Assembly: GCA_964510775.1 (NCBI GenBank)
Contig: CAZEBZ010000002.1
Coordinates: 8,447-72,446 of the forward strand
Origin: an uncultured Thermodesulfobacteriota bacterium
GTDB lineage: Bacteria > Desulfobacterota > GWC2-55-46 > JADFVP01
Direction of reading: 5' to 3'
DNA: 64,000 bases
The notes beneath the pieces were generated by a model, which searched no databases, had not been told where the DNA came from, and saw only the letters and a list, made by a program, of their open reading frames with translations. Shown here piece by piece: positions 2,700 to 54,437 of this stretch (positions are counted from its first letter, which is position 1; each line of letters begins with the position of its first letter). The translations under genes and the position numbers were made by a program.

Positions 2700-3929
2700 T
2701 TATAACTTCGCGGCAAATCCGCCTATCAGCTCTCTAACCTCTGCCACATCAAGACGCTCGGCAAGAAGGGGCACAATAATGGGGCGCTCGGCCTCACCAT
2801 TAACCTCCTCAAGTATTACGTTCACAAAGGCAACAACTGCCGCCGGGTCGAACTGTGTGCCCGTATGCTTCTTAATCTCAGAGATTGCGGCATTAAAGCT
2901 GAGACGCGGCCTGTATGGCCTGTCAGTGGTCATGGCGTCAAAGGCATCCATGAGGGCCATCACCTTCGCACCAGCCGGTATCTCGCCGTGTGCAAGCCTG
3001 TCGGGGTAGCCCGTACCGTCGATCTTTTCGTGATGGTTGCGTGTCATCATGGCGATACCCTTCCAGGGGAAATGTATCTTCGAGAGTATCTCATACCCCA
3101 CTACGGGGTGAGAGTTAAGCTCTCGCACTTCCATGCTTGTCAGCGGGCTGGCCTTGTTGATTATAGTCTTGTCTACGGTAATCTTACCAATGTCATGGAG
3201 CAGGCCGGCGACTTTTATACCCTCTACCCGGGTCTTTGTCCAGCCCATCTTCTCTGCCACCACTGCGCTGTAGGCAGAGACCCTGTGAGAGTGCCCCTTT
3301 GTATATGCGTCCTTTGCGTCAATAGCCGTGGCAAAGGCATGGATAGTGTCGCGGTAAACCATGGAGAGATTATCATAAAGGCCCTTGTTCTCATTATACT
3401 TGTGCATAAGGCGTGTAAAGAGGGCGTTTGTATGGAGGCTGTAGGAGATATGCTGCGCCATAACAGAGAAGAGCTGTCTGTCGTAAAGTGTATAATCCTG
3501 CCCCGAGACCTTCTCGCTTATGGCTATAACGCCGAAGAGTTCTCCCTTTATCACAAGGGGAGAGGCTACTCTAACATTAAAACGGAGAAGCTCTTCTCTG
3601 AGGGTACCAAAGACAGCACCGCTGGCCTCATCATTCAGGTCAAAGGCCTGAAGGTTCACGCAAAGGGCCTTTATCGTATCCCTGCCGAGTATAAGGGTCT
3701 TGCCGCCAAGACCAGGTATGCCCTTTGCCGCTACAGAGGCAAAACACTTTTTTTCCCTGTCATAAGAGAGAATAACCCCCCTGGACGTAGAGAATGAGCC
3801 CATGACCATCATAAGGGAAGACCTCATAATCTTCACAAAATCCTTGGGTGAAGCTATCTCTTCGCCGAGCTCGGCAAGGGTATTAAGATGAAAGACAAGT
3901 TTTTCAAGACTTACATCAGGCACTACCAT
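2700..3929 (-). CDS. GAF domain + HD-GYP c-di-GMP phosphodiesterase
   Basis: 409 aa. The C-terminal half carries an HD motif (HSHRVSAYS...LLHDIGK) and HHEKIDGTGYP (HD-GYP signature). The N-terminal half is GAF-like. Confidence 0.85.
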   Translation of the reverse strand: MVVPDVSLEKLVFHLNTLAELGEEIASPKDFVKIMRSSLMMVMGSFSTSRGVILSYDREKKCFASVAAKGIPGLGGKTLILGRDTIKALCVNLQAFDLNDEASGAVFGTLREELLRFNVRVASPLVIKGELFGVIAISEKVSGQDYTLYDRQLFSVMAQHISYSLHTNALFTRLMHKYNENKGLYDNLSMVYRDTIHAFATAIDAKDAYTKGHSHRVSAYSAVVAEKMGWTKTRVEGIKVAGLLHDIGKITVDKTIINKASPLTSMEVRELNSHPVVGYEILSKIHFPWKGIAMMTRNHHEKIDGTGYPDRLAHGEIPAGAKVMALMDAFDAMTTDRPYRPRLSFNAAISEIKKHTGTQFDPAAVVAFVNVILEEVNGEAERPIIVPLLAERLDVAEVRELIGGFAAKL

Positions 3930-3982: not shown

Positions 3983-4372
3983 TTAAACAGCCGCTACGGG
4001 AACCTTTACACCGCAGGCCTTAAGGGCGTCATCTTCAGTATCATATATGGGCACGCTATCAGTAAGTCTCACAATCTTTAGAACATCATAGACAACACCG
4101 CGTACCCCTGACAAGAGAACTTTGGAGCCAACACCCTGTACCTTCTCTATAATACTTGTAAGTATAGAGATACCAATGGAATTTATAATATCCGTACTGG
4201 AAAAATCAAGGATAATGGCACAGCCTCTCTCCTTAAGAAAGGACTCGCATATCTCCTCAAGTTTCTCACCCTCGAGGTCGTTAATATAATCCCTTGCGTA
4301 GACTACAATAACGTCGCCGTAATCAGTGAAGGTTTTAACTTCTTTATCCATCACCGTCCTCTCCTTTTTCAT
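3983..4372 (-). CDS. STAS-domain anti-sigma-factor antagonist (SpoIIAA/RsbV-like)
   Basis: 129 aa. ILDFSSTDIINSIGISIL carries the conserved phosphorylatable Ser context of anti-anti-sigma factors. The gene overlaps the upstream kinase gene by 29 nt. Confidence 0.8.
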   Translation of the reverse strand: MKKERTVMDKEVKTFTDYGDVIVVYARDYINDLEGEKLEEICESFLKERGCAIILDFSSTDIINSIGISILTSIIEKVQGVGSKVLLSGVRGVVYDVLKIVRLTDSVPIYDTEDDALKACGVKVPVAAV

Positions 4373-6533
4373 TGAGATATTTTACAAGCACAAGGCGCGT
4401 TCCTCCATCAAGGCTCTCAAAGCGCACCTCATCCATAAGTCCTTTCATAAGAGCGAGCCCCCAGCCCCGTTTCTGAGGCAGAGCCTCGGCGCCGCCTGCG
4501 GCCGGAGTGGCCGAGAGGGCTCCGTCAAAATCATATCCGGGGTTGGATACATATATAGTAAGGGCCTCAGGAGAGGTGACAAACCTCAGATGCACCTTCG
4601 AGGGAGGCGAACCGCTGTGCTCAAAGGCGTTTATGCAGGCCTCCACCACGCTCGTCTTTATCCGCCCGATAGAGTCCTCGTCAAAACCCATCTCAGCGCT
4701 GATTTCAGTAGCCGCGCGCACGCCAACGAGCTCGGCATTACGGCTCGGAGGAAGCACCATCTCAAACTCCCTTACAGCGGGCTCAGGGCCGCTGGCACGG
4801 CCGCTCTGCACGGGGCACACGAGCTTTTTAATCGCAGCGAGGGCAACGGCGTCTGATGTGAAAGCAGGGCCGTCTTTTGCAAGCCTCTCAAGGGCTTCGC
4901 TGCTAAAGCCTTTTTTTCCAACGAGCCATCTTATTACCCGCGCAGGGCAGAACTCTCGCTGCAGAATACGGCTCCGCCGAAGAAAATTCTCTACATCACC
5001 TGTATTTACAAGGGTATCAGAGTCCTTAAGGCCAACGAGCCAGAGTACCTCGCCGCTGGCATCAAACCTGCCCGGAGCAAAACCATGGGCGATTACAATA
5101 GGCAGTCCGCTCTCGTATTTTTCAAATGCGCTCGCTGCAAAACACCCCGTGACGCTTGGAAGCCTCAGACGCGTCTCATCATCTGCATCCTCGGCGGCCT
5201 TATCACATGCGCCAATACGAAAGAGGGTCTGTGGCGCATCTTGACCTTCAAAAGCCCTCAAGACACTCATTATCTCATCTCTAAACCTTCCCTTTACGGC
5301 GCTGCCCTGTGCAGAGTAACCCGTCTTAAGGACATCCCTTATCATCCACGTCCTTGTCTCTTCGGCGCTCTTTCCAAGCAGAGCCGTAGAACACATGTAC
5401 TCAATATAGTCACCGGCTACAGGGTCAGTGGTACCGCGGATAGAGCCAAGATTAAGTGTAAGGAGGTTAAGAGAGGAGAGAAGCAACACTGTCTTCTCCA
5501 TATCGACGGCGCTTATGCCAAGCCTCTCCGAGAGGTCATCAAGACCTATGGGCCCCCGCTGCATCATAAGGGCACGTAGAGCCCGAAGGCCGCTTCGCCC
5601 GCATTGCGAGAACTCGCCGCCAAAGGCCGCGCCAAGAGTTCCCGTAGTAATCTCATTGACATAGAGGGCGGCAAAGCCTTTTATACTCTTAAGGGCCTCT
5701 ACGGGGCCGCATGACATGGCCCGCACAATCTCTCTAATATAAAATGGGTTTCCGCCGAGCCTTCGCGCCGCCATTGAGACTACCTCTGACTCAAAGCCAA
5801 GGCTGTAACCTCGCAGCAGCTCTTCTATCATAGCCCGGGCGTCGTAGCCAGGCAGACCCTTTACCTCTATGGTCTCGGAGTAGACCTCACCGGCGAGCCC
5901 ATTGCTCATAGCGCCTTCGCCCGAGGCAGCGGCAAAGGCCAGGGGCTTCAGTGCCGCACTTAACTCTCCCGCTACAGAGCCCCCCCTTTCGTAGAGGTTT
6001 ATAGACTCGGCAGAGTCTATATCGTCAAGGAGCAAAAAGGCGGCGGTGCCTGTCTCGCGAGATATAACCTCAACAATGCGAAGAGCGTTCCTAAGGAGCG
6101 CCGTCGGTTCATCTCCCCCTCGCAGGTCAAGGTGCGCGGTAATAAGGTCCGCAGTCTCGATAAAGCCCTCATCGGCAAGGAGGCTCCTGATTTTTTCAAG
6201 TCTCAACTGGCCCCGCGACACTTCGGGGTCACGCCTCTTAAAGGCACGAAACTGCTTTATAACGGCGGCGATAAAGCCGCCGCAAAACTCCTCAAGGCTC
6301 AATGAGGCACTTAATTGATAATATACGGGTACAACAAGACCCTGCTCCCAGAAGAGCTTCCTGTGCGTCCTTCTAAGTATCTCTGTCTTGCCTATCCACC
6401 TCGCCCCCTTAAGGATAATCGCGCAGGGCGGATGAGAGAGATCTACGGCTGCGCCGTAGATCTTATCCATAAGGGTCTCTCTACCAAAGAACTGCCCCTC
6501 GGGAAGTACTGAAAAAATGCTCTTATTTCTCAT
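4344..6533 (-). CDS. Fusion protein: N-terminal P-loop NTPase (AAA-like) + C-terminal RsbW/SpoIIAB-like HATPase_c serine kinase
   Basis: 729 aa. Walker A is GARWIGKT and Walker B is FLLLDDID near the N-terminus. The C-terminus has an N-box (EACINAFEH) and a G2-box (KRGWGLALMKGLMDEV) typical of anti-sigma serine kinases. Confidence 0.6.
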   Translation of the reverse strand: MRNKSIFSVLPEGQFFGRETLMDKIYGAAVDLSHPPCAIILKGARWIGKTEILRRTHRKLFWEQGLVVPVYYQLSASLSLEEFCGGFIAAVIKQFRAFKRRDPEVSRGQLRLEKIRSLLADEGFIETADLITAHLDLRGGDEPTALLRNALRIVEVISRETGTAAFLLLDDIDSAESINLYERGGSVAGELSAALKPLAFAAASGEGAMSNGLAGEVYSETIEVKGLPGYDARAMIEELLRGYSLGFESEVVSMAARRLGGNPFYIREIVRAMSCGPVEALKSIKGFAALYVNEITTGTLGAAFGGEFSQCGRSGLRALRALMMQRGPIGLDDLSERLGISAVDMEKTVLLLSSLNLLTLNLGSIRGTTDPVAGDYIEYMCSTALLGKSAEETRTWMIRDVLKTGYSAQGSAVKGRFRDEIMSVLRAFEGQDAPQTLFRIGACDKAAEDADDETRLRLPSVTGCFAASAFEKYESGLPIVIAHGFAPGRFDASGEVLWLVGLKDSDTLVNTGDVENFLRRSRILQREFCPARVIRWLVGKKGFSSEALERLAKDGPAFTSDAVALAAIKKLVCPVQSGRASGPEPAVREFEMVLPPSRNAELVGVRAATEISAEMGFDEDSIGRIKTSVVEACINAFEHSGSPPSKVHLRFVTSPEALTIYVSNPGYDFDGALSATPAAGGAEALPQKRGWGLALMKGLMDEVRFESLDGGTRLVLVKYLNEKGEDGDG

Positions 6534-8163
6534 ATAAAACTACCCTGTTCTTGCCTCTGCGTTTCGCCTGATACATGGCAGCATCGGCTCGGTAGATAAG
6601 GTCGTCAGTATTACGAGCGTCTCCTGGAAACTCGGCGATACCTATGGATATAGTAGGTGACGGACAAGACATCTCTTGGGGAAACTCCAGAAGCTCCACA
6701 TCAGACCTGATCCTCTCGGCAATGACCTCAGAATCAAGCTTCGAGGTATGGGAGAGTATGACGGCAAACTCCTCACCGCCGTAGCGCACAACAACGTCCA
6801 CTGTCCTTACGGCGTCTTTTATGGCCAGGGAAATACGTTTAAGCACATAATCGCCTGCAAGGTGGCCCCAGTTGTCGTTAAAGGCCTTAAAATCGTCAAC
6901 ATCTATTATGAAGACGGTAAAGCTGTCTCGCTGCCGCCTTACACGCTCGGCCTCCTCAAAGAGCCTGTTCTTGAAGAACCTTCTGTTAAAGAGTCCCGTA
7001 AGAGGGTCTGTCATGGAGACTGTCTTGAGCTTCTCGCTCATACTGTAGTAGGCCCCCCTCTCAAGGGCTATTGTGGCGTAGTTTGAGATGGAGAGAAGGA
7101 CAAAGAGGTCTTGAGATGTAAAGAGACCCTCTCCGCTCTTATCGGCAAGGTTTATAACCCCTATGACACGGTCATAGAGTTTCAATGGAGCGGAGATAAA
7201 AGAAGGCGTCTTGTAAGCCCGTTGGCTTTTTCTCCAAGGCAGCTCCTTATCGATATCCTCAATCACCATGGGCTCGCCCTTTTGCGCAGTGCGCCCCGTT
7301 ATACCCTGCCCCATTTTTATGCGCACACTTGTGGCGATGCTCTTTTCCAGCCCCCTTGATGACTTTATACGAAAGGCCTTGCTGGCGTTATCAAATATCA
7401 TCAATGAAGCGCGCTCAGCACCTATAAGCTCACTGGATTTGGAGAGTATTATCTCGTAGAGTGAGTCCTTATCTATTACCGTAGAGATACTCTTGTATAT
7501 ATCAAGAAGACCCTTGAACTCCCCGTTGTAAGAGAAACCTGCCGCAGAGGGAGTCTCATCACTTCGCGGTAGAGACGTATTGTGAAGGGATTCGAGAAAA
7601 GGCACGGCCAATCTCTTAAAGGTATCGGGAAGGCTGAAAAGTGAGTCTGTCGCGAGACTCTTTACACGCCCCTTAAGGCGCTGCCGCGTCTCTCTGTCAA
7701 GGCCGTTGAGACCCTTGACAAAGGCCTCGTCTTCACGGCCCCTCATATAGGTTCTGCCTCCCATAAGCACATAAGAGCGGCCCTTTAAGAAGACGGGCAT
7801 GGCAAAGGCGAACATATTGCCGTGACACTTGAATATATGGGTATTACCGTCATGAAGAGCCCGCAGAGCGGCCTTGTTGTAATCAGAGCTGCAAAGAGCG
7901 CGAAGCTCCTCCTTGGAGCTCATCTGATGAGCCACCTCGTCATTAAAGCTCGGAGGCACGATAAAGGCCCCCTTCTCATCATTAAGGGATACTGAGACGC
8001 CAAGAAGCCTTGAGAGACCGTCCTGAAATTCGCTCCACCTCGAGGCATTAAAACCCTCAAGATGCACAGGCGACCCGTCCTTGCTGCTGCCAGCCTCGTT
8101 TCCTATATTGGAGACTCTTTCCATATTCAAAAAAACCTCAATACCATAACAGTATTGAGGCAT
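6523..8163 (-). CDS. GAF domain + GGDEF diguanylate cyclase
   Basis: 546 aa. The active-site motif is RYGGEEFAV, with a DxLTGLxNRR I-site/linker region. The central domain is GAF. The gene overlaps the downstream ATPase-kinase gene by 11 nt. Confidence 0.85.
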   Translation of the reverse strand: MPQYCYGIEVFLNMERVSNIGNEAGSSKDGSPVHLEGFNASRWSEFQDGLSRLLGVSVSLNDEKGAFIVPPSFNDEVAHQMSSKEELRALCSSDYNKAALRALHDGNTHIFKCHGNMFAFAMPVFLKGRSYVLMGGRTYMRGREDEAFVKGLNGLDRETRQRLKGRVKSLATDSLFSLPDTFKRLAVPFLESLHNTSLPRSDETPSAAGFSYNGEFKGLLDIYKSISTVIDKDSLYEIILSKSSELIGAERASLMIFDNASKAFRIKSSRGLEKSIATSVRIKMGQGITGRTAQKGEPMVIEDIDKELPWRKSQRAYKTPSFISAPLKLYDRVIGVINLADKSGEGLFTSQDLFVLLSISNYATIALERGAYYSMSEKLKTVSMTDPLTGLFNRRFFKNRLFEEAERVRRQRDSFTVFIIDVDDFKAFNDNWGHLAGDYVLKRISLAIKDAVRTVDVVVRYGGEEFAVILSHTSKLDSEVIAERIRSDVELLEFPQEMSCPSPTISIGIAEFPGDARNTDDLIYRADAAMYQAKRRGKNRVVLYEK

Positions 8164-8514
8164 CCTTTACCCCGGCCAAGAGACCCTTCATGAGCCCCTT
8201 GATTCACAGATGCGTAACAAAAAGCCAACCCCTTCCTGCCAGGAACTACAATCATTTTTCACGAAGATTTTACCATAGAAATTGGTTTTTTACAATAAGT
8301 TTATTCTGCCTCTGGTTCGCCGCCGCGTTAAGCCTGCTTCTCAGATAGCGGTATGGATATGATTATGAGAGATAAGAACCGAGGGGAGAGCGAAGGGACA
8401 AAACACACCTCAGAAAGGCAGGCCGCATACCCGCCAAGGGATAAAGATATAACCGCCCCTAAACATATAAGAGAGCTTAAGGGCGAGATTAGAAGAAGAG
8501 CGTTACGGCAGGAA

Positions 8515-41413: not shown

Positions 41414-42304
41414 TTAGCGCCCTTTAATCTTTTTCACGGCAGGCGTCTTCTTTACGTCCTGAGTATCTTTAATCTTTTTCACCTTCTTCTCAATGGCCTC
41501 GGCGCGCTTCTTATAATCAGCGGCCTCGGTATTGGCGGGGTCAACGGCAAGCACCTTCTTCCACTCTCTTATGGCAAGGGCAAGCTCCTCTTTCTGAAAA
41601 AGAGTTACGCCCTCTTTGATATGACGGTCTATAAAATTCTTGCGCTCAAGACGGGCGAGATTTAAAAAAAGCTCGGCGTCTTTATAATCAGGCACAATCT
41701 TAAGCGCCTCTGTAAAGTGCTTTATGGCTTTATTATATTTACCTGAGATAAAATAAAGCTTACCCTTTACGTAGTGATGTCCCGCTTTTTTCTCAGGGCC
41801 AACATCTCTCTTTTTGGCCTTACGTATCTTCTTTCTTATCTCTTCAAGCCCGGGCAATGGCTGGCCGGGATTCTCACTGCTTAAAATTTTGTTAAGAAGG
41901 GTATGCTTTTTTCTCGCCCACTTATTTGATGGATTAATACGAAGGGCAGTATCATACTCTTTAAGGGCTTTGTGCAGTATACCCGCCTTCTCATAGGCCT
42001 CGGCAAGCTCCACATGCTCTGTTGAGAGTTTAAGGGCAAGTCTGTTAATATCCTTCAGGAGTTTTTGAGCTCGGCTGTACGCAGGGTCTGTCTCTACTAT
42101 GTCACCGGCCTTGTCCCTTGCCTGAGATATAGCACCGCGCTCATAGAGTATCTCTGCCTGCCTGTAATCAGTACCAAGGACATAATCAGTCCCTGTCCCC
42201 GCGCAGCCGGAGAAGAGGACAGAGGCCAAGACCACGAGGCTAAGGTAAAAACCCCTCCTCGCCCATGGTTCTGATAGTCCTCTCAACAACTTGCTCAATC
42301 TCAA
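41414..42304 (-). CDS. TPR-repeat lipoprotein
   Basis: 296 aa. A lipobox-like signal (VLFSGC) is followed by multiple 34-residue TPR repeats (AEAYEKAGILHKALKEYDTALRINP and others). The annotated start overlaps the upstream cyclase gene by 65 nt, so the true start may be an internal non-ATG codon. Confidence 0.7.
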   Translation of the reverse strand: MRLSKLLRGLSEPWARRGFYLSLVVLASVLFSGCAGTGTDYVLGTDYRQAEILYERGAISQARDKAGDIVETDPAYSRAQKLLKDINRLALKLSTEHVELAEAYEKAGILHKALKEYDTALRINPSNKWARKKHTLLNKILSSENPGQPLPGLEEIRKKIRKAKKRDVGPEKKAGHHYVKGKLYFISGKYNKAIKHFTEALKIVPDYKDAELFLNLARLERKNFIDRHIKEGVTLFQKEELALAIREWKKVLAVDPANTEAADYKKRAEAIEKKVKKIKDTQDVKKTPAVKKIKGR

Positions 42305-43664
42305 CCCTCCTATTATCCTTCAACTCAACTATACTATAAAGCCCGATTGGCTTGTCAACACCTTTTATTGCCGCAGGCGCTACCTTCTGACAATGGGCGT
42401 ATTTCTTCACCCGCGCATAAAGCCCCTCGTTTATAAGTATCTCACCTCCGCCTGCTATATCAGATAACCGCGAGGCCATGTTCACTGCCTCGCCGACTGC
42501 CGTATACTCCATCCTCTGTCTCGAACCCATGTTGCCTACAATCACAGGGCCGGAATCAAGGCCAAGGCCCATACGCACAGCGGGCTCACCGCGCTCCTGC
42601 CTCAGGGCATTTACGCGCCTTAGGACATCCCTTATGGCAACAGTCGTCTTGACCGCCTCCTCCAGATGAGAAGGATTGGCAATAGGAGCGCCAAATACGC
42701 ACATTACGGCATCGCCGATAAACTTATCCACCGTGCCGCCGCAGGTAAAGACTACCTCCGTAATAAGGCTGAAGTATTTATTCAATATCTCAACTGTCTG
42801 CTCCGGACTCATGCTCCGGGCATGACGGGTAAAGCCGCGTATATCAGCGAAAAAAACAGTAAGATCGCGTCGTTCGCCGCCAAGATCAAGGCTCTCGGGC
42901 TCTCTTAATATCTCATCGGCCACATCAGGGCTGACATAGAGATTAAAGACCCCTCTCATAACCTCCTTTTTCTTCAGCTCCGCGGCCATATGGTTAAATG
43001 AGCGCACAAGCTCGCCCACCTCGTCTCTTCTCCCTTCAGGTATCTTATAATCAAAATTTCCCATAACTATCTCCTTCGTACCTTTGAGGAGCATGAATAT
43101 GGGCCTTAAAAATCCTGAGGCAAGGGGTATAGAGATAAAAGAGACGAAGATTATAGCCAGCATGGTGATAATAACGAGGCTCATTACCGCGGCCCTTACC
43201 CTCTCGACGATAAAGGCCTTTGAGAAAGAGAGTACCGTGTAGCCAACCTTGGTATCCTTAAAAAAAACAGGCATGGCGTAGGTAATGGAGCCCTCTCCCT
43301 CAGATATCACCCATGGATAGGCGCCGCGCGCCGCATTGATACGGTTTGCGAGAAAAAATCTCTCGCCCACGCTCCGCATATCCCTAACGGCCTTGACCAT
43401 GAGGCTCTCGTTCAGTATGTATGCCTTTGAGATTGATGGATTTTTAAGAATATTCTCAATGAGCTGGCTCATTGCGAGGCTGTCGTTCTCAAGGAGGGGG
43501 AACTTACTGTTACGGGAAAAACTGCCTGTAATAGTTCCGGCCATGGACTTTATCTGCGATTCCATGGAGTGTTTCTGATTCAGCACCATGAAGACGCCCA
43601 TGACAGTGGTAATGGCGCAAAACAGGATGGAGAGGATTATGGCGTACTTTAACTTTATGCCCAT
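42240..43664 (-). CDS. Membrane-bound class III adenylate/guanylate cyclase with periplasmic sensor and HAMP domain
   Basis: 474 aa with two TM segments flanking a roughly 140-aa periplasmic domain, a HAMP domain (VGELVRSFNHMAAEL), and a CHD cyclase domain (FADIRGFTRHA...GDAVMCVFG). Confidence 0.8.
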   Translation of the reverse strand: MGIKLKYAIILSILFCAITTVMGVFMVLNQKHSMESQIKSMAGTITGSFSRNSKFPLLENDSLAMSQLIENILKNPSISKAYILNESLMVKAVRDMRSVGERFFLANRINAARGAYPWVISEGEGSITYAMPVFFKDTKVGYTVLSFSKAFIVERVRAAVMSLVIITMLAIIFVSFISIPLASGFLRPIFMLLKGTKEIVMGNFDYKIPEGRRDEVGELVRSFNHMAAELKKKEVMRGVFNLYVSPDVADEILREPESLDLGGERRDLTVFFADIRGFTRHARSMSPEQTVEILNKYFSLITEVVFTCGGTVDKFIGDAVMCVFGAPIANPSHLEEAVKTTVAIRDVLRRVNALRQERGEPAVRMGLGLDSGPVIVGNMGSRQRMEYTAVGEAVNMASRLSDIAGGGEILINEGLYARVKKYAHCQKVAPAAIKGVDKPIGLYSIVELKDNRRVEIEQVVERTIRTMGEEGFLP

Positions 43665-46013: not shown

Positions 46014-48623
46014 TCACTTCCCGCCACGGGTAAGGACTTCTTTTACAAAGGTTATCTCCTCGTCTTTACTGCATATCTCTCCATCAAGACGCTTTAGGAG
46101 CAGGGCGGAAATAGTACGCCCTATCTGCGGCCCCTCGGGCACTCCAAGGCCCAGAAGCTCGGAGCCTGTAAGGGCCGGGGCAGTACCCCTTAAGCGGGTA
46201 ATATAAGTAGAGAGGCTCTTCTTAACAGCCTCATCTTCTGTACGGGCCATCATGTATAATAACCCCTCAATGGGCAATAAAGAGAGTAAGGTGTACAGCT
46301 CACTATTGGAAAAGGGAATTTCTCTGCCAAGAGACTTTAAGGCTCTCCGATAGACCCGCCTTCGCGAGATTATATCCACTGTTTTCTTGTCTACTATGGA
46401 GAGCCTTGTTCTAATACCCCTCATCATAACCTCGCTCAGCCCGTCTGTAAGGACAAGAAAGAGAACCACCCACTCTGCGAGCTGCTCACCTGTGTACAAG
46501 AGTTTAAACCAGCCCAGCGCCTCTCTTGCCCTCTCAAAAAAGGCCTCATCTCTCGCGTTAAAGGTAATTCCGCTGTGTATAAGGGGAAGAAGACCGAGCC
46601 GGCCGAGGGCCTTTATTGCCTTTAATGCCGTCTCCTCATCAAGAATGCTTCGCAGCTCCTCAAGGAGACGAGGCCCCGAGAGATGGCTGAAGACCCCGAG
46701 CCTTACGGCCTTCTTAATAAGTTTTTTCGTATGGGGCTCGATAGTAAAACCGAACTTGACGGCAAACCTCACGGCCCTGAAGGCGCGCGTAGGGTCCTCG
46801 ATAAAACTCAGGTTATGGAGTACGCGTATCTTCTTTTCTTTTATATCACGGCGGCCCCCGAAAAAATCTATAAGGCTCCCAAAGGAGTCGGGGTTTAGCT
46901 CCACGGCGAGGGTATTGATTATAAAGTCACGCCTGTATATATCAAGTTTCAGTGAGGACTGCTCTACTGTTGGCAGCGCCCCGGGGCTCTCATAATACTC
47001 AAGACGCGCCGTGGCAACATCTACTTTAAATCCGTCAGGAAATATTAAGACCGCTGTCTTGAACCTCTTATGCGAGCGCACTCTGAGGTTGTTTTCTTTA
47101 GCGTAAGAGCGAGCAAAGGTTATGGCGTCGCCATGCTCGATAACTATATCCACGTCGAGATTATCTCTGCCAAGGAGAAGGTCGCGGACAAAACCGCCTA
47201 CTACATAAGCGCGGCAATTAAGGGCCTCGGCAATGCCGCCAAGAGATGCCAGCCTCTCCATAAGCCACTGCGGAAGCCTCTCTCTCATAAGGTTAGCCAC
47301 TACCTTGACCCTCGGCCCCGTCCCATACTCGCTGCCAATATCCCTCTGCAGGAGCCGCAGTATATCCGTCCTCGTAATAACCCCCCTGACACTGTGCCCC
47401 TGTAGCACAGGTATGAGCCGCTGCCCGTGTCTTACGAACATCTCCCTTATCTCCCCAAGAGAGGTATCCGGCCCTACGCACTCCACATCAGTACTCATGA
47501 AGTCGGCGATTTCCTCATCGCCGAGGCCGTGATATACTGCCTTGTCAATAGTCTGGCGCGTTATCACACCAGTGAAGAGACCGCCCTCAACTACGGGGAT
47601 AGCGTTAATATTATACCTGCCGAGTATTGCCGAGGCCTGCCGTAAAGGTGTATCTGACTCAACAGTAATAGGGGGAAAACTCATAATATCCGCTGCACTC
47701 TCCGTTGGCGGCACAGCTCGCTTCAACGCGCCGAGAAGAGTTGCTCTTGCCTCTGTAAGGGTAAGGCCCTTTAACGTAACAGAGGCGGCATGGGCATGAC
47801 CTCCGCCGCCAAGAAGCTTTAATACATGACCCACGTTTACACCTCTGGCCTTACTTCTCGCAACAACATGAACCCTCTCGCCGGAATCCACAAGCATAAA
47901 GAGAGACTCCATGCCCTCTATATCTCGAATCTTGTGGGCGAGTATGGAGATGTCTCCGCCGTGTTCTGTAAAGGTACCCTCGGCAATCACGATCTCGCGG
48001 CCGCCAAAGGTCACGGTAGTCTCGTTCTTAAGGAGCTCGTTTAAAAAAGATACCTCCTCAGGCGTTAACTCCCTGGTGAGCATATCAGATAAGGCCGAGA
48101 GGTCTGCTCCGGCCTCAAGAAGATAGGCCGCCGCATTAAGGTCATTCACTGTAGTAGAGGGGTAAGTAAGGGAACCCGTATCCTCATAGATGCCTGCCAT
48201 CATTACCGTAGCCTCGGCGGCACTCACCTTCAACCCCTTATCTCGCAATATCTCAGTAATCACCGTAGTAGTAGAGCCGTACTCCTTTACTACCTCAAGA
48301 GTACCAGAGAGGTCTCCCTCTGAGGCGGGGTGATGGTCATAGATATGAACCTCAAGGCCCTCTTTGCCTATTATATCGGCAAAGGCCCCAAGCCTTGCGG
48401 GGCTGCGCACATCAACGAGTATGAGGCGGGTAACAAGGGCAAGATCTATGTCTTTAACCCTGTAAAATGTCTCTTGAAGACCAGCGGTGGAGAGGGCCTC
48501 CTTGAGAGTCTTCTCAAGGGAGCCGGGAAAGACGAGCTTTGCCTGCGGATAGAGCTTATGGGCGCCTATCATAGAGCCCAGAGTATCAAAGTCCGCGTTT
48601 ATATGGGCGGATATAACTTCCAT
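46014..48623 (-). CDS. Multidomain CCA tRNA nucleotidyltransferase: DHH-DHHA1 phosphoesterase + tandem CBS + poly(A) polymerase/CCA head + HD domain
   Basis: 869 aa. The N-terminus carries NrnA-like DHH motifs (HINADFDTLGS, HIYDHHPA) and a DHHA1 segment (GGGGHAHAAS). The middle has CBS pairs. The C-terminal half carries GGFVRDLLLGRDNLDVDIVIE, the class II nucleotidyltransferase signature, followed by a helical tRNA-binding region. Confidence 0.8.
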   Translation of the reverse strand: MEVISAHINADFDTLGSMIGAHKLYPQAKLVFPGSLEKTLKEALSTAGLQETFYRVKDIDLALVTRLILVDVRSPARLGAFADIIGKEGLEVHIYDHHPASEGDLSGTLEVVKEYGSTTTVITEILRDKGLKVSAAEATVMMAGIYEDTGSLTYPSTTVNDLNAAAYLLEAGADLSALSDMLTRELTPEEVSFLNELLKNETTVTFGGREIVIAEGTFTEHGGDISILAHKIRDIEGMESLFMLVDSGERVHVVARSKARGVNVGHVLKLLGGGGHAHAASVTLKGLTLTEARATLLGALKRAVPPTESAADIMSFPPITVESDTPLRQASAILGRYNINAIPVVEGGLFTGVITRQTIDKAVYHGLGDEEIADFMSTDVECVGPDTSLGEIREMFVRHGQRLIPVLQGHSVRGVITRTDILRLLQRDIGSEYGTGPRVKVVANLMRERLPQWLMERLASLGGIAEALNCRAYVVGGFVRDLLLGRDNLDVDIVIEHGDAITFARSYAKENNLRVRSHKRFKTAVLIFPDGFKVDVATARLEYYESPGALPTVEQSSLKLDIYRRDFIINTLAVELNPDSFGSLIDFFGGRRDIKEKKIRVLHNLSFIEDPTRAFRAVRFAVKFGFTIEPHTKKLIKKAVRLGVFSHLSGPRLLEELRSILDEETALKAIKALGRLGLLPLIHSGITFNARDEAFFERAREALGWFKLLYTGEQLAEWVVLFLVLTDGLSEVMMRGIRTRLSIVDKKTVDIISRRRVYRRALKSLGREIPFSNSELYTLLSLLPIEGLLYMMARTEDEAVKKSLSTYITRLRGTAPALTGSELLGLGVPEGPQIGRTISALLLKRLDGEICSKDEEITFVKEVLTRGGK

Positions 48624-48709: not shown

Positions 48710-49654
48710 CTAAAAGAGTGTCTTTCTCTTTTTCTTTTTCTTTTTCTGCTTTTTCTTCTTCTCTTCCTCTTCTTTAGCTTTTTTATCGGCCTCGGCCTTG
48801 GCCGCGGCCTTCTCTTTCACAACATCAGCGCCTGTAATCCAGTCCGGTATGGCACGCTCTACGGAGTGACAGCGAAAACAATTTTCAAGAGGAAAGGCCA
48901 CCTTGCCGTGACAAGCGCCGCAGTACTCTCCGTCTATAATCTTCATCATATCCATAGCAGCATTACCGCCCTCTTTCGCCTTAAAGCGCCCCGGGTGACA
49001 GGCCGCGCAGTCAAGTACCTCGGTATGAGACTTATGTGGGAAGAGGACATCAGGCGGGACTGCGGAGAATTTACTGCGGGCATAGGCAGGAAGCACTACG
49101 TCCTTTTTAAGCGCCTTCAGCTGTCCCTTACCGTCAAGAGAGGATTTTGGAGTAATCTTATTCTCATGGAGGGCCTTGACCCAGTCAACCTTGTTGCCAA
49201 AATCACTAGCGGGAAAGCCCCTAAGGGCCTCCTTAATACCGCTATTCTCCACGACCTTCTTACCATAGGAATGGCAGCGATTGCATGTCTTCGTACTAAA
49301 AGCCTCTCTTCCGTTATGACAGGCGCCGCATTTTCCCCCGCTCTCAATATCGCTATGCCTTATATCCGTAAAGCCTGCCTTCCAGGCAAATCCAAGATCC
49401 TTGTGACAGACATTACATGTATAAAACCTCCTGTGCGCCCAGTGTTTAAAGACAACAGGGGCCACACCATCGGCGGCCTTAATATTCTTCTTCATCACAA
49501 CAGAGCCGTACCAGGAAGGCGGTAATACTTTATTGTAACCATCCCCTGTTACGGTGCGGGGCCCTGCCGCTGAGGAAGAGATAAATTGCGGCGCCGCTAT
49601 GACAAATAGAGCAAGAAGAACTATCTCTATGATATGCGTACAAAAACGTTTCAA
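48710..49654 (-). CDS. Hexaheme c-type cytochrome built from c7/c3-like modules, with a poly-lysine C-terminal tail
   Basis: 314 aa with a signal peptide and six CxxCH motifs (CNVCH, CGACH, CNRCH, CAACH, CGACH, CFRCH). The distal His contexts are c3/c7-like (VVFKHWAHRRF, VLFPHKSHTEVL). The C-terminus is KAKEEEEKKKKQKKKKKKRK. Confidence 0.8.
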   Translation of the reverse strand: MKRFCTHIIEIVLLALFVIAAPQFISSSAAGPRTVTGDGYNKVLPPSWYGSVVMKKNIKAADGVAPVVFKHWAHRRFYTCNVCHKDLGFAWKAGFTDIRHSDIESGGKCGACHNGREAFSTKTCNRCHSYGKKVVENSGIKEALRGFPASDFGNKVDWVKALHENKITPKSSLDGKGQLKALKKDVVLPAYARSKFSAVPPDVLFPHKSHTEVLDCAACHPGRFKAKEGGNAAMDMMKIIDGEYCGACHGKVAFPLENCFRCHSVERAIPDWITGADVVKEKAAAKAEADKKAKEEEEKKKKQKKKKKKRKTLF

Positions 49655-49682
49655 TATAAAAAGACCTCCCTGACAAGAATTT

Positions 49683-50072
49683 TTAATAGCCCCTGTGACA
49701 GGCCGAGCACAGACGCAGATAATCTATCCTCAGCATATTTGGGTACTCTGACTTATTATGAGCATCATGGCATGTGTAGCACACAAGCTTACCACTCTTA
49801 TCAAGGGGCATACGCCTGCTTATGTTTATCCTCGGTCTCTTACCTATGGGGTGTTTTGCCACAGGGTGATTGCCGAGCTGCTCCTTATGGCAACGCGTGC
49901 AGAGAGTAACTGTATCTAACTTTAAGGAAGGCATCTCGCTGCCATGACAGTAAGAGCAACTCTCTTTATTCTCCCACTCATGGGGATTGACGCCGTGACC
50001 CGCCGCCAAAGAGACACGCGGCAGGGTAAGCAACGAGAGGAATAAAAAGACTGCAAGAGCGAGACCCGCCAT
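49683..50072 (-). CDS. Small tetraheme c-type cytochrome
   Basis: Four CxxCH motifs (CSYCH, CTRCH, CYTCH, CSACH) in about 130 aa. The start is placed at the internal Met preceding the signal peptide MAGLALAVFLFL; the ORF track starts at 50135. Confidence 0.75.
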   Translation of the reverse strand: MAGLALAVFLFLSLLTLPRVSLAAGHGVNPHEWENKESCSYCHGSEMPSLKLDTVTLCTRCHKEQLGNHPVAKHPIGKRPRINISRRMPLDKSGKLVCYTCHDAHNKSEYPNMLRIDYLRLCSACHRGY

Positions 50073-50214
50073 TATCCACCGCAAATGAGTGCGAGTACTA
50101 CCTCTATTTATCAAGACAGGCGCATAAATGCCCATGACCGTGCCTCCACCCTATCTTTCCATCACAGCGGGCCTTGCTCCGGTGATAATCAAAAAAACTC
50201 ACAGAGAGCCCACT

Positions 50215-52401
50215 CTAATTAGTACAATCAGCAACAGTATTACAGCTGTAGATAGCCGTAACTCCCGTAAGTATATCCGTAAAATTATGCTTACAGACCT
50301 TGTCCGTCAGAGTATTCACTGTTCTAAAGTATAGCTGCGCTCCGGCAGTCGTAGTCGCCGGCACATAGGACTCTATACAGGCCCCGTTCATCATCCTGTA
50401 CCCAAGGGGGCTTGAGCCAACAACAGTGCCCGCCGCCGCGTTGCTGCCATGTATACCCTTCATTACATTATTAACACTGTCATAACCGCCGCCGTGACAG
50501 GACAGGCAGAGATTGCCAAAGTAATTGCTGTCATTACCCGTACCAACGCCTGAGGTATAAAAAGGTGAGGCCGTACCGAGACCATCCACGGGGTGAGGTA
50601 CTCTGGAATAGTTGGCATTAGGCCCGACAAAACCCTCATCGCCATAGACATCGCGGCGGTGGCAGTTATAGCAGAAGTTCTTCAGAGAACCCGCTCCGCT
50701 CTCATTGCTTCTAAGGACCCACTTATTATTTGAGGCATGAGGCCCCTGTGGGTCTGCTGCCGAGTCCGGGCCATGACAATCCGTACACGTCATAGTCGAT
50801 TCATGAGTAACATTGGCAAAACCAGTCCTCGTGCCTGTACCGGGAAAATCAAGATAAGTAAATGTATTAGTAAGACCGAGGCCGTTAATTGGCCAATTGG
50901 GGTTAGCCAAGACAGGCGGACGGTTCTTGCCCTGAATAAATACAGGGTGAAAGCCCTTGTTGTTTACATTAAAGTCATCTGAAATATCCGATTCTTTCAC
51001 AATACTGCCGTTCGCGTTGCCAGAGGGAACAAAAGGCGGCATACTGGAGTAGGCGTAATAGGAATGACACTTCATACACAGGTAGCCCTCAAGGTTATTT
51101 CCGCCGGGCAGAGTTGATGTGAAGTCAACAACCTGATAGGTAAGGGCCGCTCCGGAGAGAGGCCAGACAGAGGGCATTACCCCCCATGAGCCTAACAAAT
51201 TAGGGCCTATGACATCTCCGTCAATACCGCCTATAGTGTGATTACCGGCCTTTGCACCGTGAGGATTATGACAATCGGCGCACTCGGCGTGTCTGTTCAG
51301 ACCAAGGTTAACGGCCGTCTCACGAGCTGGATCGCTTGAGACGGATCTTGAAGGTATATGGGCGCCGCTAACTCCCTTCACATCATGCATTGAGGTCTTA
51401 GTAAAAAGGGCATCTATGTTTTTTGCGGCCACGTTGCCATTATGGCAGTTAAGGCATGTCCACTCCTCATCTACTATTGTATGAGTCACAGGATCCGTAC
51501 CCTTCAAGAGGCTCTTTCCCGCCATGCCTCCATGAGAGCGGTGGCAGGCAAGACAGCTATGCTGCTGCGGTGTATCGTCGGCAAAACCCGCCGCGCCCAT
51601 ATCAAGGTGATAGGGATTCTCACCTGTCTGGTTCCAGAGAGCGATTGAGTCCCTGTGAACTGAGGGATTGGTATCCCAGTATTTTTTAGTATGACAGGCA
51701 GCACAGAGCACGCCGTTCTCAGGGCTCGTTACCATTAAGGCAGGGTATATGGTGCCGTGAGGGTCGTGACAGCTTGTGCATTGCAGCATGTTATTCTTAT
51801 CCAGTTTCACCGCAGCCGGCAGAGCCGATGCGGCCTTAATTTCCACATTGGCAGGTGAAGAGAGTGCGTAATCAAATGAAATGGGATGGTCGTCTCTTAG
51901 ATCCGTCCCTATATAAGCCGTAGAAACGGCAGTAAGTTTACCAGCCGTCACCCCCGGGCCTGTAACAGGCAGGGTAAATGGGCCCGTTACTGATGTGAAG
52001 TTCTTAAGAGAACCAATGGCAATAGTTCCGTCGTGACAGGAGAGGCATAGTTTTGACGAACCCGTGGGCTGGCCCATAGTGGCAACAACAGTATCGCTCT
52101 GATATATATTATAAGTAGCTCCCGAGTCAGCCCTGTTCCAGAGGGGCCCCGATGGGCTGGTATTATGAGGGGCATGACAAAATACACATATCCTTGTAGT
52201 ATTTGCCGTCTTTATCGCAGAGGAAGAGAAAGTGCTGAAGTTGTGTTTTGTCGCGGCAACTGTGGCAAAAACCGGTGTCGCGGCAAAAAACATAACGCCG
52301 GACATCAATAAGCCCAGACAAAAAACCACTGCGTGCGCTGTGCCAGTCCCTCGCAGAAAATTAACAAAAAAACTTCTTTTAATAAACTCGGCGTATCTCA
52401 A
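50215..52401 (-). CDS. Large multiheme c-type cytochrome, 11 CxxCH motifs
   Basis: 728 aa with a signal peptide and 11 CxxCH motifs (CVFCH, CLSCH, CTSCH, CAACH, CLACH, CLNCH, CADCH, CMKCH, CTDCH, CYNCH, CLSCH). Composition is rich in Thr/Ser/Gly/Asn, which suggests surface exposure. Confidence 0.8.
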   Translation of the reverse strand: MRYAEFIKRSFFVNFLRGTGTAHAVVFCLGLLMSGVMFFAATPVFATVAATKHNFSTFSSSAIKTANTTRICVFCHAPHNTSPSGPLWNRADSGATYNIYQSDTVVATMGQPTGSSKLCLSCHDGTIAIGSLKNFTSVTGPFTLPVTGPGVTAGKLTAVSTAYIGTDLRDDHPISFDYALSSPANVEIKAASALPAAVKLDKNNMLQCTSCHDPHGTIYPALMVTSPENGVLCAACHTKKYWDTNPSVHRDSIALWNQTGENPYHLDMGAAGFADDTPQQHSCLACHRSHGGMAGKSLLKGTDPVTHTIVDEEWTCLNCHNGNVAAKNIDALFTKTSMHDVKGVSGAHIPSRSVSSDPARETAVNLGLNRHAECADCHNPHGAKAGNHTIGGIDGDVIGPNLLGSWGVMPSVWPLSGAALTYQVVDFTSTLPGGNNLEGYLCMKCHSYYAYSSMPPFVPSGNANGSIVKESDISDDFNVNNKGFHPVFIQGKNRPPVLANPNWPINGLGLTNTFTYLDFPGTGTRTGFANVTHESTMTCTDCHGPDSAADPQGPHASNNKWVLRSNESGAGSLKNFCYNCHRRDVYGDEGFVGPNANYSRVPHPVDGLGTASPFYTSGVGTGNDSNYFGNLCLSCHGGGYDSVNNVMKGIHGSNAAAGTVVGSSPLGYRMMNGACIESYVPATTTAGAQLYFRTVNTLTDKVCKHNFTDILTGVTAIYSCNTVADCTN

Positions 52402-52559
52402 GAAAAACCTCCCCGCAGATTACATGCCGCTCACCACAAATAATCGCTTTTTCGATTATCTGCCATACAAATAAATAACCGGCTCTTTACTACAAAACCC
52501 CACTCAACAGACTTGGCGCTGCTCTTGGCCAAAGACTCCGGTAATCATCTCTTTGAGAC

Positions 52560-53696
52560 TCATCCGCCGCGCGTATGAATGGGTTCGCTGCCACCGCCTC
52601 CAAGATACTCAAAGACCTCTATCCTTCTATTGTAAGGATCTGCCACAAAAATATTATCAGAGGCGTCTATAAAGACCCCTCCGGGCATCCAGAACATACC
52701 GGGGCCTGCGCCGAGCTTTCCGAAGCTAAGGAGAAAGGCACCCTTGCGGGAAAATATCTGCACAGTATCAAAGATGGCATCGGCCACATATATGTTGCCC
52801 TCGGAATCTACGGCAATACCCTTTGGCCTGCCAAAATCGCCAGTGCCGTCGCCATGCTGACCAAAGCTGCTTAAATATCGGCCATTCATGTCGAATATCT
52901 GAACCCTGTAGTTCATAGAGTCCGTTACATAGAGGTCTCCTCTGGCATCAACAAAGACATCAGTAGGGTAATTAAACTGACCATCTTTGTCTCCACGACC
53001 GCCAAACGTCTTAATAAGCCTACCCTGAAGGTCGTAGGCTATTAGTTCATGCTCGCCAGTATCCACGACATAGAGGCGTTTTCTCGCGGCGTCTACGGCT
53101 AAACCCGTAGGGCGCGTCCCGCCATCAATGGAACGAATGAGCTTGCCTCGCTGATTAAAGACATAGACCTTGCGTGCGCTGGAATCACTGACATATATAT
53201 TATCGGCGTTGTCTGTGGCCACGCCCATAGGAGATATAAGAGGGTCTTTGCCTGCCCTATCGATAAATTCATACTTTTTTTTCTTCTTATCGTATATATG
53301 AACCCTCTTCAGGACAGTATCGGCAACGATAATCCTGCCGGAGACGTCTACGGCGATACCATAGGGCTTCACCATATCTCTCTTGGCGGCGCCAACAAGG
53401 ACATCGACGATTTTTTTGAAAAGACCTCTCTTGATTCCAAGATCCTCGGGCCTTGCAAGGGATATATCAAAGGCAATACGCGCAGGCGCCGGAGGTGAGG
53501 GCCATATAAGGGGCTTATGCTTAAAGTCTTTTGATTGCTGAGCTGATATGTCCGGAGTACCGCATCCAACTGAGGTAAGGAGCAGGGTAAGCACAAGGAG
53601 ACACAGACATGACAAAGAGGCCGCTTCGCGTACAGAACGCACCGAAGCATCACGCCGTTGCATGAAAAAATCATAAAAAGCAGAATATATTCTCAT
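52560..53696 (-). CDS. NHL-repeat six-bladed beta-propeller protein, probable lipoprotein
   Basis: 378 aa with six NHL repeats (IYVSDSSARKVYVFNQRG, LYVVDTGEHELIAYDLQG, LYVTDSMNYRVQIFDMNG, IYVADAIFDTVQIFSRKG, IFVADPYNRRIEVFEY and others) and an N-terminal signal with Cys (LTSVGC). Confidence 0.8.
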   Translation of the reverse strand: MRIYSAFYDFFMQRRDASVRSVREAASLSCLCLLVLTLLLTSVGCGTPDISAQQSKDFKHKPLIWPSPPAPARIAFDISLARPEDLGIKRGLFKKIVDVLVGAAKRDMVKPYGIAVDVSGRIIVADTVLKRVHIYDKKKKKYEFIDRAGKDPLISPMGVATDNADNIYVSDSSARKVYVFNQRGKLIRSIDGGTRPTGLAVDAARKRLYVVDTGEHELIAYDLQGRLIKTFGGRGDKDGQFNYPTDVFVDARGDLYVTDSMNYRVQIFDMNGRYLSSFGQHGDGTGDFGRPKGIAVDSEGNIYVADAIFDTVQIFSRKGAFLLSFGKLGAGPGMFWMPGGVFIDASDNIFVADPYNRRIEVFEYLGGGGSEPIHTRGG

Positions 53697-53717
53697 AACT
53701 TCACCAGAGCCCCGCGC

Positions 53718-54356
53718 TTATTTTCTGTGGCAGTACTGGCAGATATCCGCCCCCTCAGCCCTGAGACGAGTCTCCTGATCCGCGCCCCACTCCGCCCTGC
53801 CGTAAAGAAGACCCCTCTCGTGAGAATTATGGCATGTCCCACAAAATATCTTACCCGTAGCGGGATCAAGAGGAAGGAGCAGCGGAAGCTCCTTCTTTAT
53901 AAGCCTCATATTCTTGTATATCAACGCCGGGGGTTTAGCAAGATGACTAGGTGCCACAAAACCGCTCATCGCCGGGCCAACGCCCTCTGAGCCGGGGTGC
54001 TTTTTTATTAAATGACAACTATAACAATTTTTATTAATATCCTCGGAAAATCTAAGTTTCATATTTACATCAGATTTAAGATTCTGAGTATCAGGCATAA
54101 CCTTGTGACAGATAAGACACTTTGACCATAAAATCTCACCCTCGTCATTTATCTGCTCATGAGGATTAATAAGAGACTTTCTCGCCGCAGTTACCTTATA
54201 AGAGAGCGGTGGAGGAGCGTCCTTATCCGCCGCTTCCGCTTTTGCGGCTTTCTTTGCCGCAAAGGCATCACCGGAATTGAGCATAATAATCAGCCCGAGG
54301 ACTATTAGGGTCTGCATTATTCCTCTGTATAAAACTTCTCGCATGAAATAACCCAA
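53718..54356 (-). CDS. Tetraheme c-type cytochrome
   Basis: 212 aa with a signal peptide and four CxxCH motifs (CLICH, CYSCH, CGTCH, CQYCH). Confidence 0.75.
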   Translation of the reverse strand: MGYFMREVLYRGIMQTLIVLGLIIMLNSGDAFAAKKAAKAEAADKDAPPPLSYKVTAARKSLINPHEQINDEGEILWSKCLICHKVMPDTQNLKSDVNMKLRFSEDINKNCYSCHLIKKHPGSEGVGPAMSGFVAPSHLAKPPALIYKNMRLIKKELPLLLPLDPATGKIFCGTCHNSHERGLLYGRAEWGADQETRLRAEGADICQYCHRK

Positions 54357-54437
54357 CCTTTAGGGCGTCCGGCCAGATGCCGGAGAGCCGTACAGAGTTT
54401 ATTCCTTACACAACAAAGATTAAACAACCATTAGAAG

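Follow-up and report, generated by a model that had tools for sequence, protein, structure and literature searches.

We report that a 729-residue protein, encoded on a 64,000-nucleotide stretch of DNA from an uncultured Thermodesulfobacteriota bacterium (assembly GCA_964510775.1, contig CAZEBZ010000002.1, positions 8,447 to 72,446; the whole of this stretch is hereafter called the window), is a genuine and conserved fusion, in which a STAND/ATPase_2-type NTPase, a winged helix and a putatively dead Mrr-type domain precede an RsbW-like GHKL domain. Its gene (called here, for brevity, the kinase gene) is the second of a minus-strand cassette of four, the order of which is PocR-GAF-GGDEF diguanylate cyclase, kinase, STAS protein and GAF-HD-GYP phosphodiesterase (Table 1). 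We lean, with moderate assurance, towards the view that the fusion protein occupies the central regulatory position in a self-contained module of four genes for the control of cyclic di-GMP (c-di-GMP), in which an NTPase-gated STAS kinase would balance synthesis against breakdown.

A first-pass annotation, made from the letters of the window, had described a single open reading frame with an N-terminal Walker A/B NTPase and a C-terminal HATPase_c-type kinase domain. The reading frame and all the motifs quoted for it were confirmed at verified coordinates; the annotation did not contain its location on the minus strand, the probable descent of its middle domain from a nuclease, or the fact that no phosphatase was found in the loci searched (see below). 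The identical 729-residue protein (P0001) is present in NCBI and JGI, 17 more homologues are mostly full-length (729-755 residues, identity down to 29%), and a profile search with alignment A3 against a 5.8-billion-protein set returned the 18 proteins already known and nothing further. When residues 1-590 served as the query of an exhaustive search, scored against 1.84 billion cluster representatives, 303 representatives were recovered at E<=1e-3 (121 at E<=1e-10), and in most of the top 150 the kinase domain is found at the C-terminus. The collected set of 166 proteins (150 of which stand for clusters at 50% identity) was scanned with hidden Markov models (HMMs) of the four modules, made from alignment A1: nucleotide-binding domain, lid plus winged helix, middle domain and kinase are all present in ~95 proteins (700-850 residues), the middle domain is missing from ~25 that keep the other three (~550 residues), and ~16 are kinase-less. 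The same architecture, for which the first-pass annotation had proposed a search in other genomes, is continuous in over 100 representatives of clusters at <=50% identity. Furthermore, when each GTDB species was represented by a single genome, 80 loci were recovered, each with a full-length relative except for a few at contig ends. The source labels of the sampled relatives read 'ATP-binding protein' or 'RsbW', and the homologues of the window protein itself likewise bear generic names.

The N-terminal NTPase adopts, by Foldseek, a STAND/ATPase_2-type fold in which the Walker motifs are intact, in keeping with the first-pass proposal. The AlphaFold2 model of the complete protein (built from 14 sequences; mean predicted local distance difference test, pLDDT, 77) has a pLDDT of mostly 79-92 within residues 11-400 (57-76 near residues 181-220), and the best PDB matches to residues 1 to ~400 are the Walker-type ATPases PABY2304 (2qen) and SSO1545 (2fna), at E 2e-8, followed by Apaf-1, Cdc6/Orc1 and CED-4 (E 1e-7 to 1e-6), NLRs and RuvB. 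The alignments to proteins composed of nucleotide-binding domain, lid and winged helix span 400-450 columns, and the Foldseek probability reaches 1.0 for Apaf-1, CED-4 and NRC. At the sequence level, Pfam AAA_16 matches residues 14-176 of the window protein at 21.7 bits (up to 25.7 bits in a second scan), below its cut-off of 32.6; ATPase_2 (PF01637) gave no match, and no NTPase family reaches its cut-off in this protein. Among 50 diverse members of the family, Pfam recognised HATPase_c_2 in 49, AAA_16 in 33, ATPase_2 in 21, AAA_22 in 15 and the STAND family NPHP3_N in 8 (AAA_16 and ATPase_2 counted at E<=0.01, the best at 2.6e-10).

Residues of this region are conserved throughout the family (R18 in 92%, G48 in 97%, K49 in 64%, D170 in 93% and P263 in 81%), P263 being part of the GxP motif of the helical lid (GGNPFYI). 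A winged helix follows at approximately residues 310-370, with weak Pfam matches to the helix-turn-helix (HTH) domains of Rrf2 and IclR in the window protein and to MarR_2, HTH_24 and HTH_20 in relatives. The STAND family is defined by an hhGRExE motif before Walker A and a GxP in the lid. Like the STAND NTPases (Apaf-1, CED-4, NLRs, MalT, Avs), the window protein has nucleotide-binding domain, lid and winged helix in the same order, along with FFGRET, Walker A/B and GxP; unlike them, it possesses no WD40, LRR or TPR sensor, its effector is C-terminal and not N-terminal, and its candidate sensor is the putatively dead nuclease domain. The ATPase_2 proteins (PF01637, 'ATPase domain predominantly from Archaea'; PABY2304 and SSO1545) offer the best structural match for residues 1 to ~400, from which the window protein differs by its dead Mrr-like domain, its appended kinase and its scores below the Pfam NTPase cut-offs. 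The function of the ATPase_2 proteins themselves is, to our knowledge, not known.

The ~400 residues between NTPase and kinase, which the first-pass annotation had left without a recognised motif, can be resolved into two parts, of which the first (231-395) comprises the lid and the winged helix and the second (396-590) is a degenerate domain resembling Mrr_cat. Pfam scans of the single sequence at E<=10 gave weak HTH hints for residues 181-380 and nothing for residues 381-590. A separate model of the middle domain (pLDDT 70) produced weak and consistent Foldseek matches to MspJI, EndoMS/NucS and AF1548 (E 4e-3 to 5e-2, probability 0.97-1.0), and also to the Avs3 nuclease region. The kinase-less relatives recovered through residues 1-590 consist of ATPase_2, winged HTH (wHTH) and Mrr_cat in the same order; two of them (P0074 and P0105) exceed the Mrr_cat cut-off (23.5 and 24.0 bits vs 21), and the HMM of the middle domain aligns exactly onto their Mrr_cat region. 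The counterpart of the ExK catalytic motif in the window protein is LWLVGLK, in which the glutamate has become Gly501: nuclease-bearing relatives keep W-h-V-E-x-K, while in the further kinase-fused members of the alignment shown this Glu is likewise replaced, by Gly or Ala. Moreover, no acidic residue of the middle domain is conserved at >=80% across the family. The alignment to Mrr_cat and the loss of the glutamate together give indirect support to residues 396-590 being a catalytically dead Mrr-type PD-(D/E)xK domain, and to a descent of the N-terminal 590 residues from a restriction-like ATPase family; the whole module probably arose from an ATPase_2/wHTH/Mrr restriction-like protein that lost its nuclease activity and was fused to an RsbW-type kinase.

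The kinase-less relatives (P0069, at L091 3910-5685, P0073, P0074, P0103, P0105 and P0137) for the most part retain an intact ExK motif. At locus L091 glycosyltransferase genes surround the gene, and a PemK/RHH toxin-antitoxin pair follows ~2.4 kb downstream. The kinase-less ATPase_2, wHTH and Mrr_cat proteins may constitute a family for restriction or defence that is NTP-dependent and as yet uncharacterised.

The C-terminal domain, which the first-pass annotation had assigned to the HATPase_c-type kinases, is matched by Pfam HATPase_c_2 (PF13581) over residues 606-718 (66.6 bits vs a cut-off of 27.4). The nearest protein of solved structure in sequence searches is Bacillus subtilis RsbW (6m36; E 5.8e-10 with the full protein and 4.5e-11 with the kinase domain), and by Foldseek the C-terminus superposes on the RsbW chains 6m36/6m37 with a target-normalised TM-score of 0.88-0.93. 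The NCBIfam profiles NF003144 (RsbW, 46.3 bits vs 145) and TIGR01925 (SpoIIAB, 30.4 bits vs 135) give domain-level matches below their equivalog cut-offs. The functional residues, i.e. the catalytic base Glu631 (205 of 210 members), the Mg-binding Asn635 (197) and the G2 box R689-G-x-G692 (R689 191, G690 192, G692 195), are all conserved at >90%. The G1 box departs from this pattern: Asn664 of the window protein aligns with the adenine-reading Asp of RsbW (VADEG) and SpoIIAB (VRDEG). The resemblance to RsbW/SpoIIAB (PDB 6m36, 6m37, 1til, 1l0o) thus comprises the fold of the C-terminal 139 residues, the Glu and Asn of the N-box, the G2 box and a neighbouring STAS gene with the canonical Ser predicted to accept phosphate; the differences lie in the 590-residue N-terminal NTPase/winged-helix/Mrr-like extension (RsbW and SpoIIAB are standalone proteins of ~140-160 residues), in the replacement of the G1 Asp (Asn here, Asn or Ser in the family), and in a locus in which neither sigma factor nor PP2C was found. 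We treat the domain as a candidate kinase with an unusual nucleotide pocket.

The partner is predicted to be the STAS protein encoded immediately downstream. It scores 40.4 bits against the TIGR00377 anti-sigma-antagonist profile, below the cut-off of 53.45, and a Ser stands at the position of S58 of Bacillus SpoIIAA and S56 of Bacillus RsbV in 80 of 80 cassette STAS proteins, within a near-invariant T-[ED]-L-[VI]-N-S-I-G-[VI]-S-I-L motif. The enzymes at the two ends of the cassette are likewise well preserved. The window cyclase has a GGEEF active site and an RTVD I-site, and among the cassette cyclases GGEEF is found in 60 of 75 and AGDEF in 11 (71/75 together), with an RxxD I-site in 71/72; the window HD-GYP protein has HDIGK at residue 245 and GYP at residue 307, motifs which its cassette counterparts share (HD[IV]GK 71/77, GYP 69/77). 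As the catalytic motifs are kept in both enzymes, cyclase and phosphodiesterase are probably both active.

Homologues at 29-46% identity are embedded in these four genes too, arranged in the identical order, within flanks that are otherwise unrelated. The full cassette was found in 67 of 86 loci, and the conserved cassette genes in these 86 loci match nothing beyond GGDEF, kinase, STAS and HD-GYP. For counts of contiguity we relied on the 53 species-level genomes with enough flank on both sides: in 43 of them (Thermodesulfobacteriota, Brocadiaceae, Acidobacteriota and others) the cassette is contiguous, and in two it is interrupted by an insertion between kinase and STAS. The link to STAS plus GGDEF/HD-GYP genes, about which the first-pass annotation had asked whether it always holds, is therefore present in most family-carrying genomes but not in all. 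The cassette also surrounds a short 558-residue Nitrospirota-type variant that lacks the Mrr-like domain, and in the clade of the window it is syntenic, being placed between the housekeeping genes yajC-secDF and recJ.

Within the window the stop codon of the cyclase gene is reached 11 nucleotides into the kinase gene, that of the kinase gene overlaps the ATG of the STAS gene (ATGGATAA), and the median distance between cyclase and kinase across loci is -4 nucleotides. From this layout we predict that the kinase gene is co-transcribed with the sensor cyclase upstream and the STAS gene downstream, with the HD-GYP gene next in line, and that the cyclase, kinase and STAS genes are probably translationally coupled. 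A consensus scan placed a sigma-70-like promoter at 8295-8267, and ~100 nucleotides downstream of it there is a 12-bp hairpin followed by a U-run (8161-8135, minus strand; GCCTCAATACTGTTATGGTATTGAGGTTTTTTTGAAT), only a few bases short of the start codon of the cyclase gene (8130). This hairpin could be the terminator of secF or an attenuator; a search of Rfam with the leader that precedes the cyclase gene brought up neither a riboswitch nor any further RNA family.

Departures from the standard arrangement were seen at individual loci. In three Acidobacteriota loci (L054 8450-10214, L071 8342-12759 and L081 4431-9550), 2-5 kb of extra genes separate kinase and STAS, the N-terminal sequences of which resemble methyltransferase, glycosyltransferase-2 and membrane-protein genes; such insertions are a hint that the output may be exopolysaccharide synthesis. 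Five loci (L016, L019, L024 (Brocadiaceae), L040 and L089) have kinase, STAS and HD-GYP with no GGDEF gene upstream; in L089 the upstream place is taken instead by a second STAS gene, and a histidine kinase lies downstream. At L075 (4873-8103) the last 305 residues of a GGDEF protein are in frame with the kinase, with no stop between them, in a 1076-residue open reading frame. We set this read-through aside as Rosetta-stone evidence, since the cyclase gene is also split in that assembly, which suggests indel errors, a natural fusion being the alternative.

Control of a diguanylate cyclase through a STAS-type protein has precedents. In SiaABCD and HptB-HsbR-HsbA-HsbD (Pseudomonas aeruginosa) and in BgrSTUWV-BgrR (Sinorhizobium meliloti) a STAS-type protein binds the cyclase directly, and its phosphorylation state controls the cyclase (SiaB/SiaC/SiaD, HsbR/HsbA/HsbD and BgrW/BgrV/BgrR) (PMC8457831, PMC5085249). 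Like these systems, the cassette encodes together an RsbW-type kinase, a STAS or STAS-like protein and a GGDEF cyclase; unlike Sia and Hsb, which have a PP2C phosphatase (SiaA and the phosphatase domain of HsbR, respectively), no such enzyme was found in it, and its STAS protein differs from SiaC, which belongs to DUF1987 and not to Pfam STAS. The Sia, Hsb and Bgr kinases are standalone or fused to receiver or PP2C domains, and are not known to be fused to a STAND-like NTPase, and we know of no such system with an HD-GYP phosphodiesterase as its fixed fourth member. Neither the fusion of an ATPase_2/AAA_16/STAND module to an RsbW-like domain nor the four-gene cassette was found described in the literature, coverage of which was incomplete, so that this is an absence of evidence.

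On the reading that we favour, the RsbW-like domain would bind the STAS protein and phosphorylate it on Ser58. The module composed of NTPase, winged helix and dead nuclease would behave as a nucleotide-dependent conformational or oligomerisation switch of the STAND-like type, much as the first-pass annotation had suggested, and would set when the kinase domains (RsbW-type domains act as dimers) are competent. The phosphorylation state of the STAS protein would in turn select one of the two enzymes, cyclase or HD-GYP phosphodiesterase, for binding and for activation or inhibition, and this choice would toggle cellular c-di-GMP. The architecture and its conservation, the cassette and the states of the motifs are observed; we infer the gating of the kinase by the NTPase and the phosphotransfer to STAS, as well as the enzyme target.

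Several observations weigh against this regulatory scheme. The predicted TM-score of the full-length model is 0.58, which makes the domain-to-domain geometry uncertain, and every genome of the family is a metagenome-assembled genome of an uncultured organism. Among the 53 genomes, cyclase and kinase occur alone in five and the cyclase is absent in three. The Walker A lysine, retained in the window protein, is replaced by Ala or Val in ~26% of members, and these still keep the cassette. In the canonical group, to which the window protein belongs (Thermodesulfobacteriota, Brocadiaceae and some Acidobacteriota/Blastocatellia and 'Clostridia' loci), the P-loop reads GxxxxGK[TS]E and the G1 position is Asn; the lysine loss is found mainly in Pyrinomonadaceae-type loci (among L033-L085), which have AAPxxG[VA]SE, mostly Ser at the G1 position, often a Walker B in which D is followed by G, C or A, and the full cassette. 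Since the lysine can be lost while the whole cassette is kept, hydrolysis of ATP or another NTP cannot be universally required. A search for a PP2C/SpoIIE phosphatase found none in cassette, window or any of the 86 loci fetched by then (searched with a crude motif regular expression, with the Pfam labels of the annotated loci and with a Pfam scan of 10 more open reading frames of the window), which leaves the switch without an obvious reset. Finally, the G1-box Asp position is occupied by Asn in 122, by Ser in 69 and by Asp in 3 of the 210 members, and in other GHKL proteins an Asp-to-Asn exchange abolishes ATP binding, so that STAS might be bound by the domain and yet receive no phosphate from it.

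The last two points keep alive the main rival, a switch of the pseudokinase type, in which the RsbW-like domain would only bind and sequester the STAS protein or an enzyme and the NTPase cycle would supply the on/off step. The altered G1 box of 191 out of 210 members speaks for it, as does the lack of a phosphatase in cassette, window and fetched loci, which is to be expected if nothing is phosphorylated; moreover, RsbW homologues that do not phosphorylate exist (e.g. UsfX of Mycobacterium tuberculosis). What it explains poorly is why Glu631, Asn635 and the G2 box should be >90% conserved, and why the phospho-acceptor Ser should be present in 80/80 STAS proteins, if there is no phosphotransfer, and in the lysine-less lineages the NTPase could not supply a cycle either. 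We consider this rival unlikely, albeit the one to be taken most seriously. A more speculative elaboration of the kinase reading starts from a domesticated restriction-like ATPase_2/wHTH/Mrr protein, its nuclease inactivated, which was fused to an RsbW-type domain with Asn or Ser in place of the adenine-reading Asp. This protein would act as a phosphatase-free switch, and its kinase would use or sense some nucleotide besides ATP, most obviously GTP, from which the cyclase next to it makes its product. The STAND cycle (or, in the lysine-less clade, a purely ligand-driven conformational change) would give reversibility, and STAS would reciprocally control cyclase and HD-GYP protein, with a self-contained bistable c-di-GMP toggle in at least five phylum-level groups as the result. 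The odds of this elaborated version being right appear rather long to us.

Alternatively, the protein could be a classical anti-sigma factor, with a sigma factor encoded elsewhere, the STAS protein as its antagonist and the c-di-GMP enzymes merely co-regulated. Such a role would agree with a C-terminal domain that is most like RsbW and SpoIIAB and with the match (though below the cut-off) of the STAS protein to TIGR00377. It agrees less well with the RsbW equivalog score (46 bits vs 145), or with the retention of the GGDEF/HD-GYP linkage across Thermodesulfobacteriota, Acidobacteriota and Nitrospirota while the outer flanks change; furthermore, no sigma-factor family was found beside the cassette in eight Pfam-annotated loci, a partner encoded elsewhere being possible. 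We judge this explanation improbable.

A role in anti-phage defence or DNA sensing, by which the ATPase/wHTH/Mrr-like module would still sense foreign or damaged DNA (much as components of phages are recognised by STAND proteins of the Avs type) and trigger a c-di-GMP or kinase response, is suggested by the nuclease motifs that the kinase-less relatives keep (one of them near a toxin-antitoxin pair) and by the structural matches of the middle domain to MspJI and the Avs3 nuclease region. Against it, PADLOC has no defence model for kinase, STAS or cyclase (the HD-GYP protein alone gave weak matches to Cas3 HD domains), the ExK glutamate is lost, the short variant keeps its cassette without any Mrr-like domain, and the cassette of the window's clade is syntenic between housekeeping genes rather than located in a variable island; we regard this role as distinctly improbable. 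An assembly or frameshift artefact that joined two genes, which the first-pass annotation had named as a possible refutation, is ruled out by the full-length homologues and the 80 species-level genomes (the protein is identical in NCBI and JGI, and the continuous architecture is shared by these genomes and by more than 100 representatives at <=50% identity), and we assign it a negligible chance.

Table 1. Coordinates of the four-gene cassette, its putative leader, and the domains and motifs of the kinase-fusion protein (positions refer to the window)
Feature	Position	Strand	Evidence
GAF-HD-GYP c-di-GMP phosphodiesterase	2700..3929	minus	Pfam HD_5 122 bits, HD 65 bits, weak GAF
STAS protein (anti-sigma antagonist-like), 122 residues	3983..4351	minus	Pfam STAS 46.2 bits
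Predicted phospho-acceptor Ser58 of the STAS protein, motif IINSIGIS	4178-4180	minus	
Kinase-fusion gene, 729 residues, ATG to stop	4344..6533	minus	Open reading frame, public identical protein P0001, AlphaFold2 model
Stop codon of the kinase-fusion gene	4344-4346	minus	
Residues 591-729, RsbW-like HATPase_c_2 domain	4347..4763	minus	Pfam, alignment to RsbW 6m36, Foldseek
G2 box RGWGL	4455-4469	minus	
G1 box VSNPG, Asn664 in the Asp position	4536-4550	minus	
N-box EACINAFEH	4617-4643	minus	
Residues 396-590, long helix plus putative PD-(D/E)xK (Mrr_cat-like) fold	4764..5348	minus	Model, Foldseek, Pfam matches of relatives
LWLVGLK, counterpart of the ExK catalytic motif, Glu replaced by Gly501	5025-5045	minus	
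Residues 231-395, helical lid plus winged helix	5349..5843	minus	AlphaFold2 secondary structure, Foldseek, weak HTH matches
Residues 1-230, P-loop nucleotide-binding domain (NTPase)	5844..6533	minus	Sub-threshold AAA_16, Foldseek, family conservation
Walker B FLLLDD	6021-6038	minus	
Walker A GARWIGKT	6384-6407	minus	
FFGRET motif, residues 15-20	6474-6491	minus	
PocR-GAF-GGDEF diguanylate cyclase	6523..8130	minus	Pfam GGDEF 163 bits, GAF, PocR
Putative cassette leader	8135..8295	minus	Consensus scan

Nearly all genes of the window are on the minus strand. Apart from the cassette, the window contains a gene for a membrane protein with HAMP and class III adenylate/guanylate cyclase domains (42240-43664, minus; Guanylate_cyc, 81 bits), which is adjoined by a TPR lipoprotein gene (41414-42304); a gene for an 869-residue fusion of DHH/DHHA1, two CBS domains and a poly(A) polymerase/CCA-adding head domain (46014-48623, minus); and a cluster encoding multihaem cytochromes c (Cytochrome_C7, paired CXXCH) together with NHL and PQQ beta-propeller proteins (48710-57077, minus). 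The rest resembles, by N-terminal sequence only, a dcw cell-division cluster (~22.9-41.0 kb) and queA-tgt-yajC-secDF.

Taken together, we rate the cassette as a variant of the known partner-switch control of diguanylate cyclases, the novelty of which would reside in its probably restriction-derived NTPase, its fixed pairing of cyclase and phosphodiesterase, its phosphatase-free layout and its altered GHKL pocket. A few proteobacterial systems provide the known examples of partner switches that act on c-di-GMP, each with a standalone or receiver-linked kinase and a PP2C phosphatase; to these the cassette would add an input that differs in mechanism (a STAND-like NTPase joined to a putatively dead nuclease domain) and a different output logic (synthase and hydrolase fixed together). 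As it consists of only four genes, a direct test by heterologous expression is possible. No fewer than 80 species-level genomes, and perhaps several hundred, carry the cassette; they belong to little-studied groups (Acidobacteriota, Thermodesulfobacteriota, anammox Planctomycetota and Nitrospirota). It would also place the enigmatic ATPase_2 family in a concrete functional setting and supply a GHKL variant that naturally does without the adenine-reading Asp.

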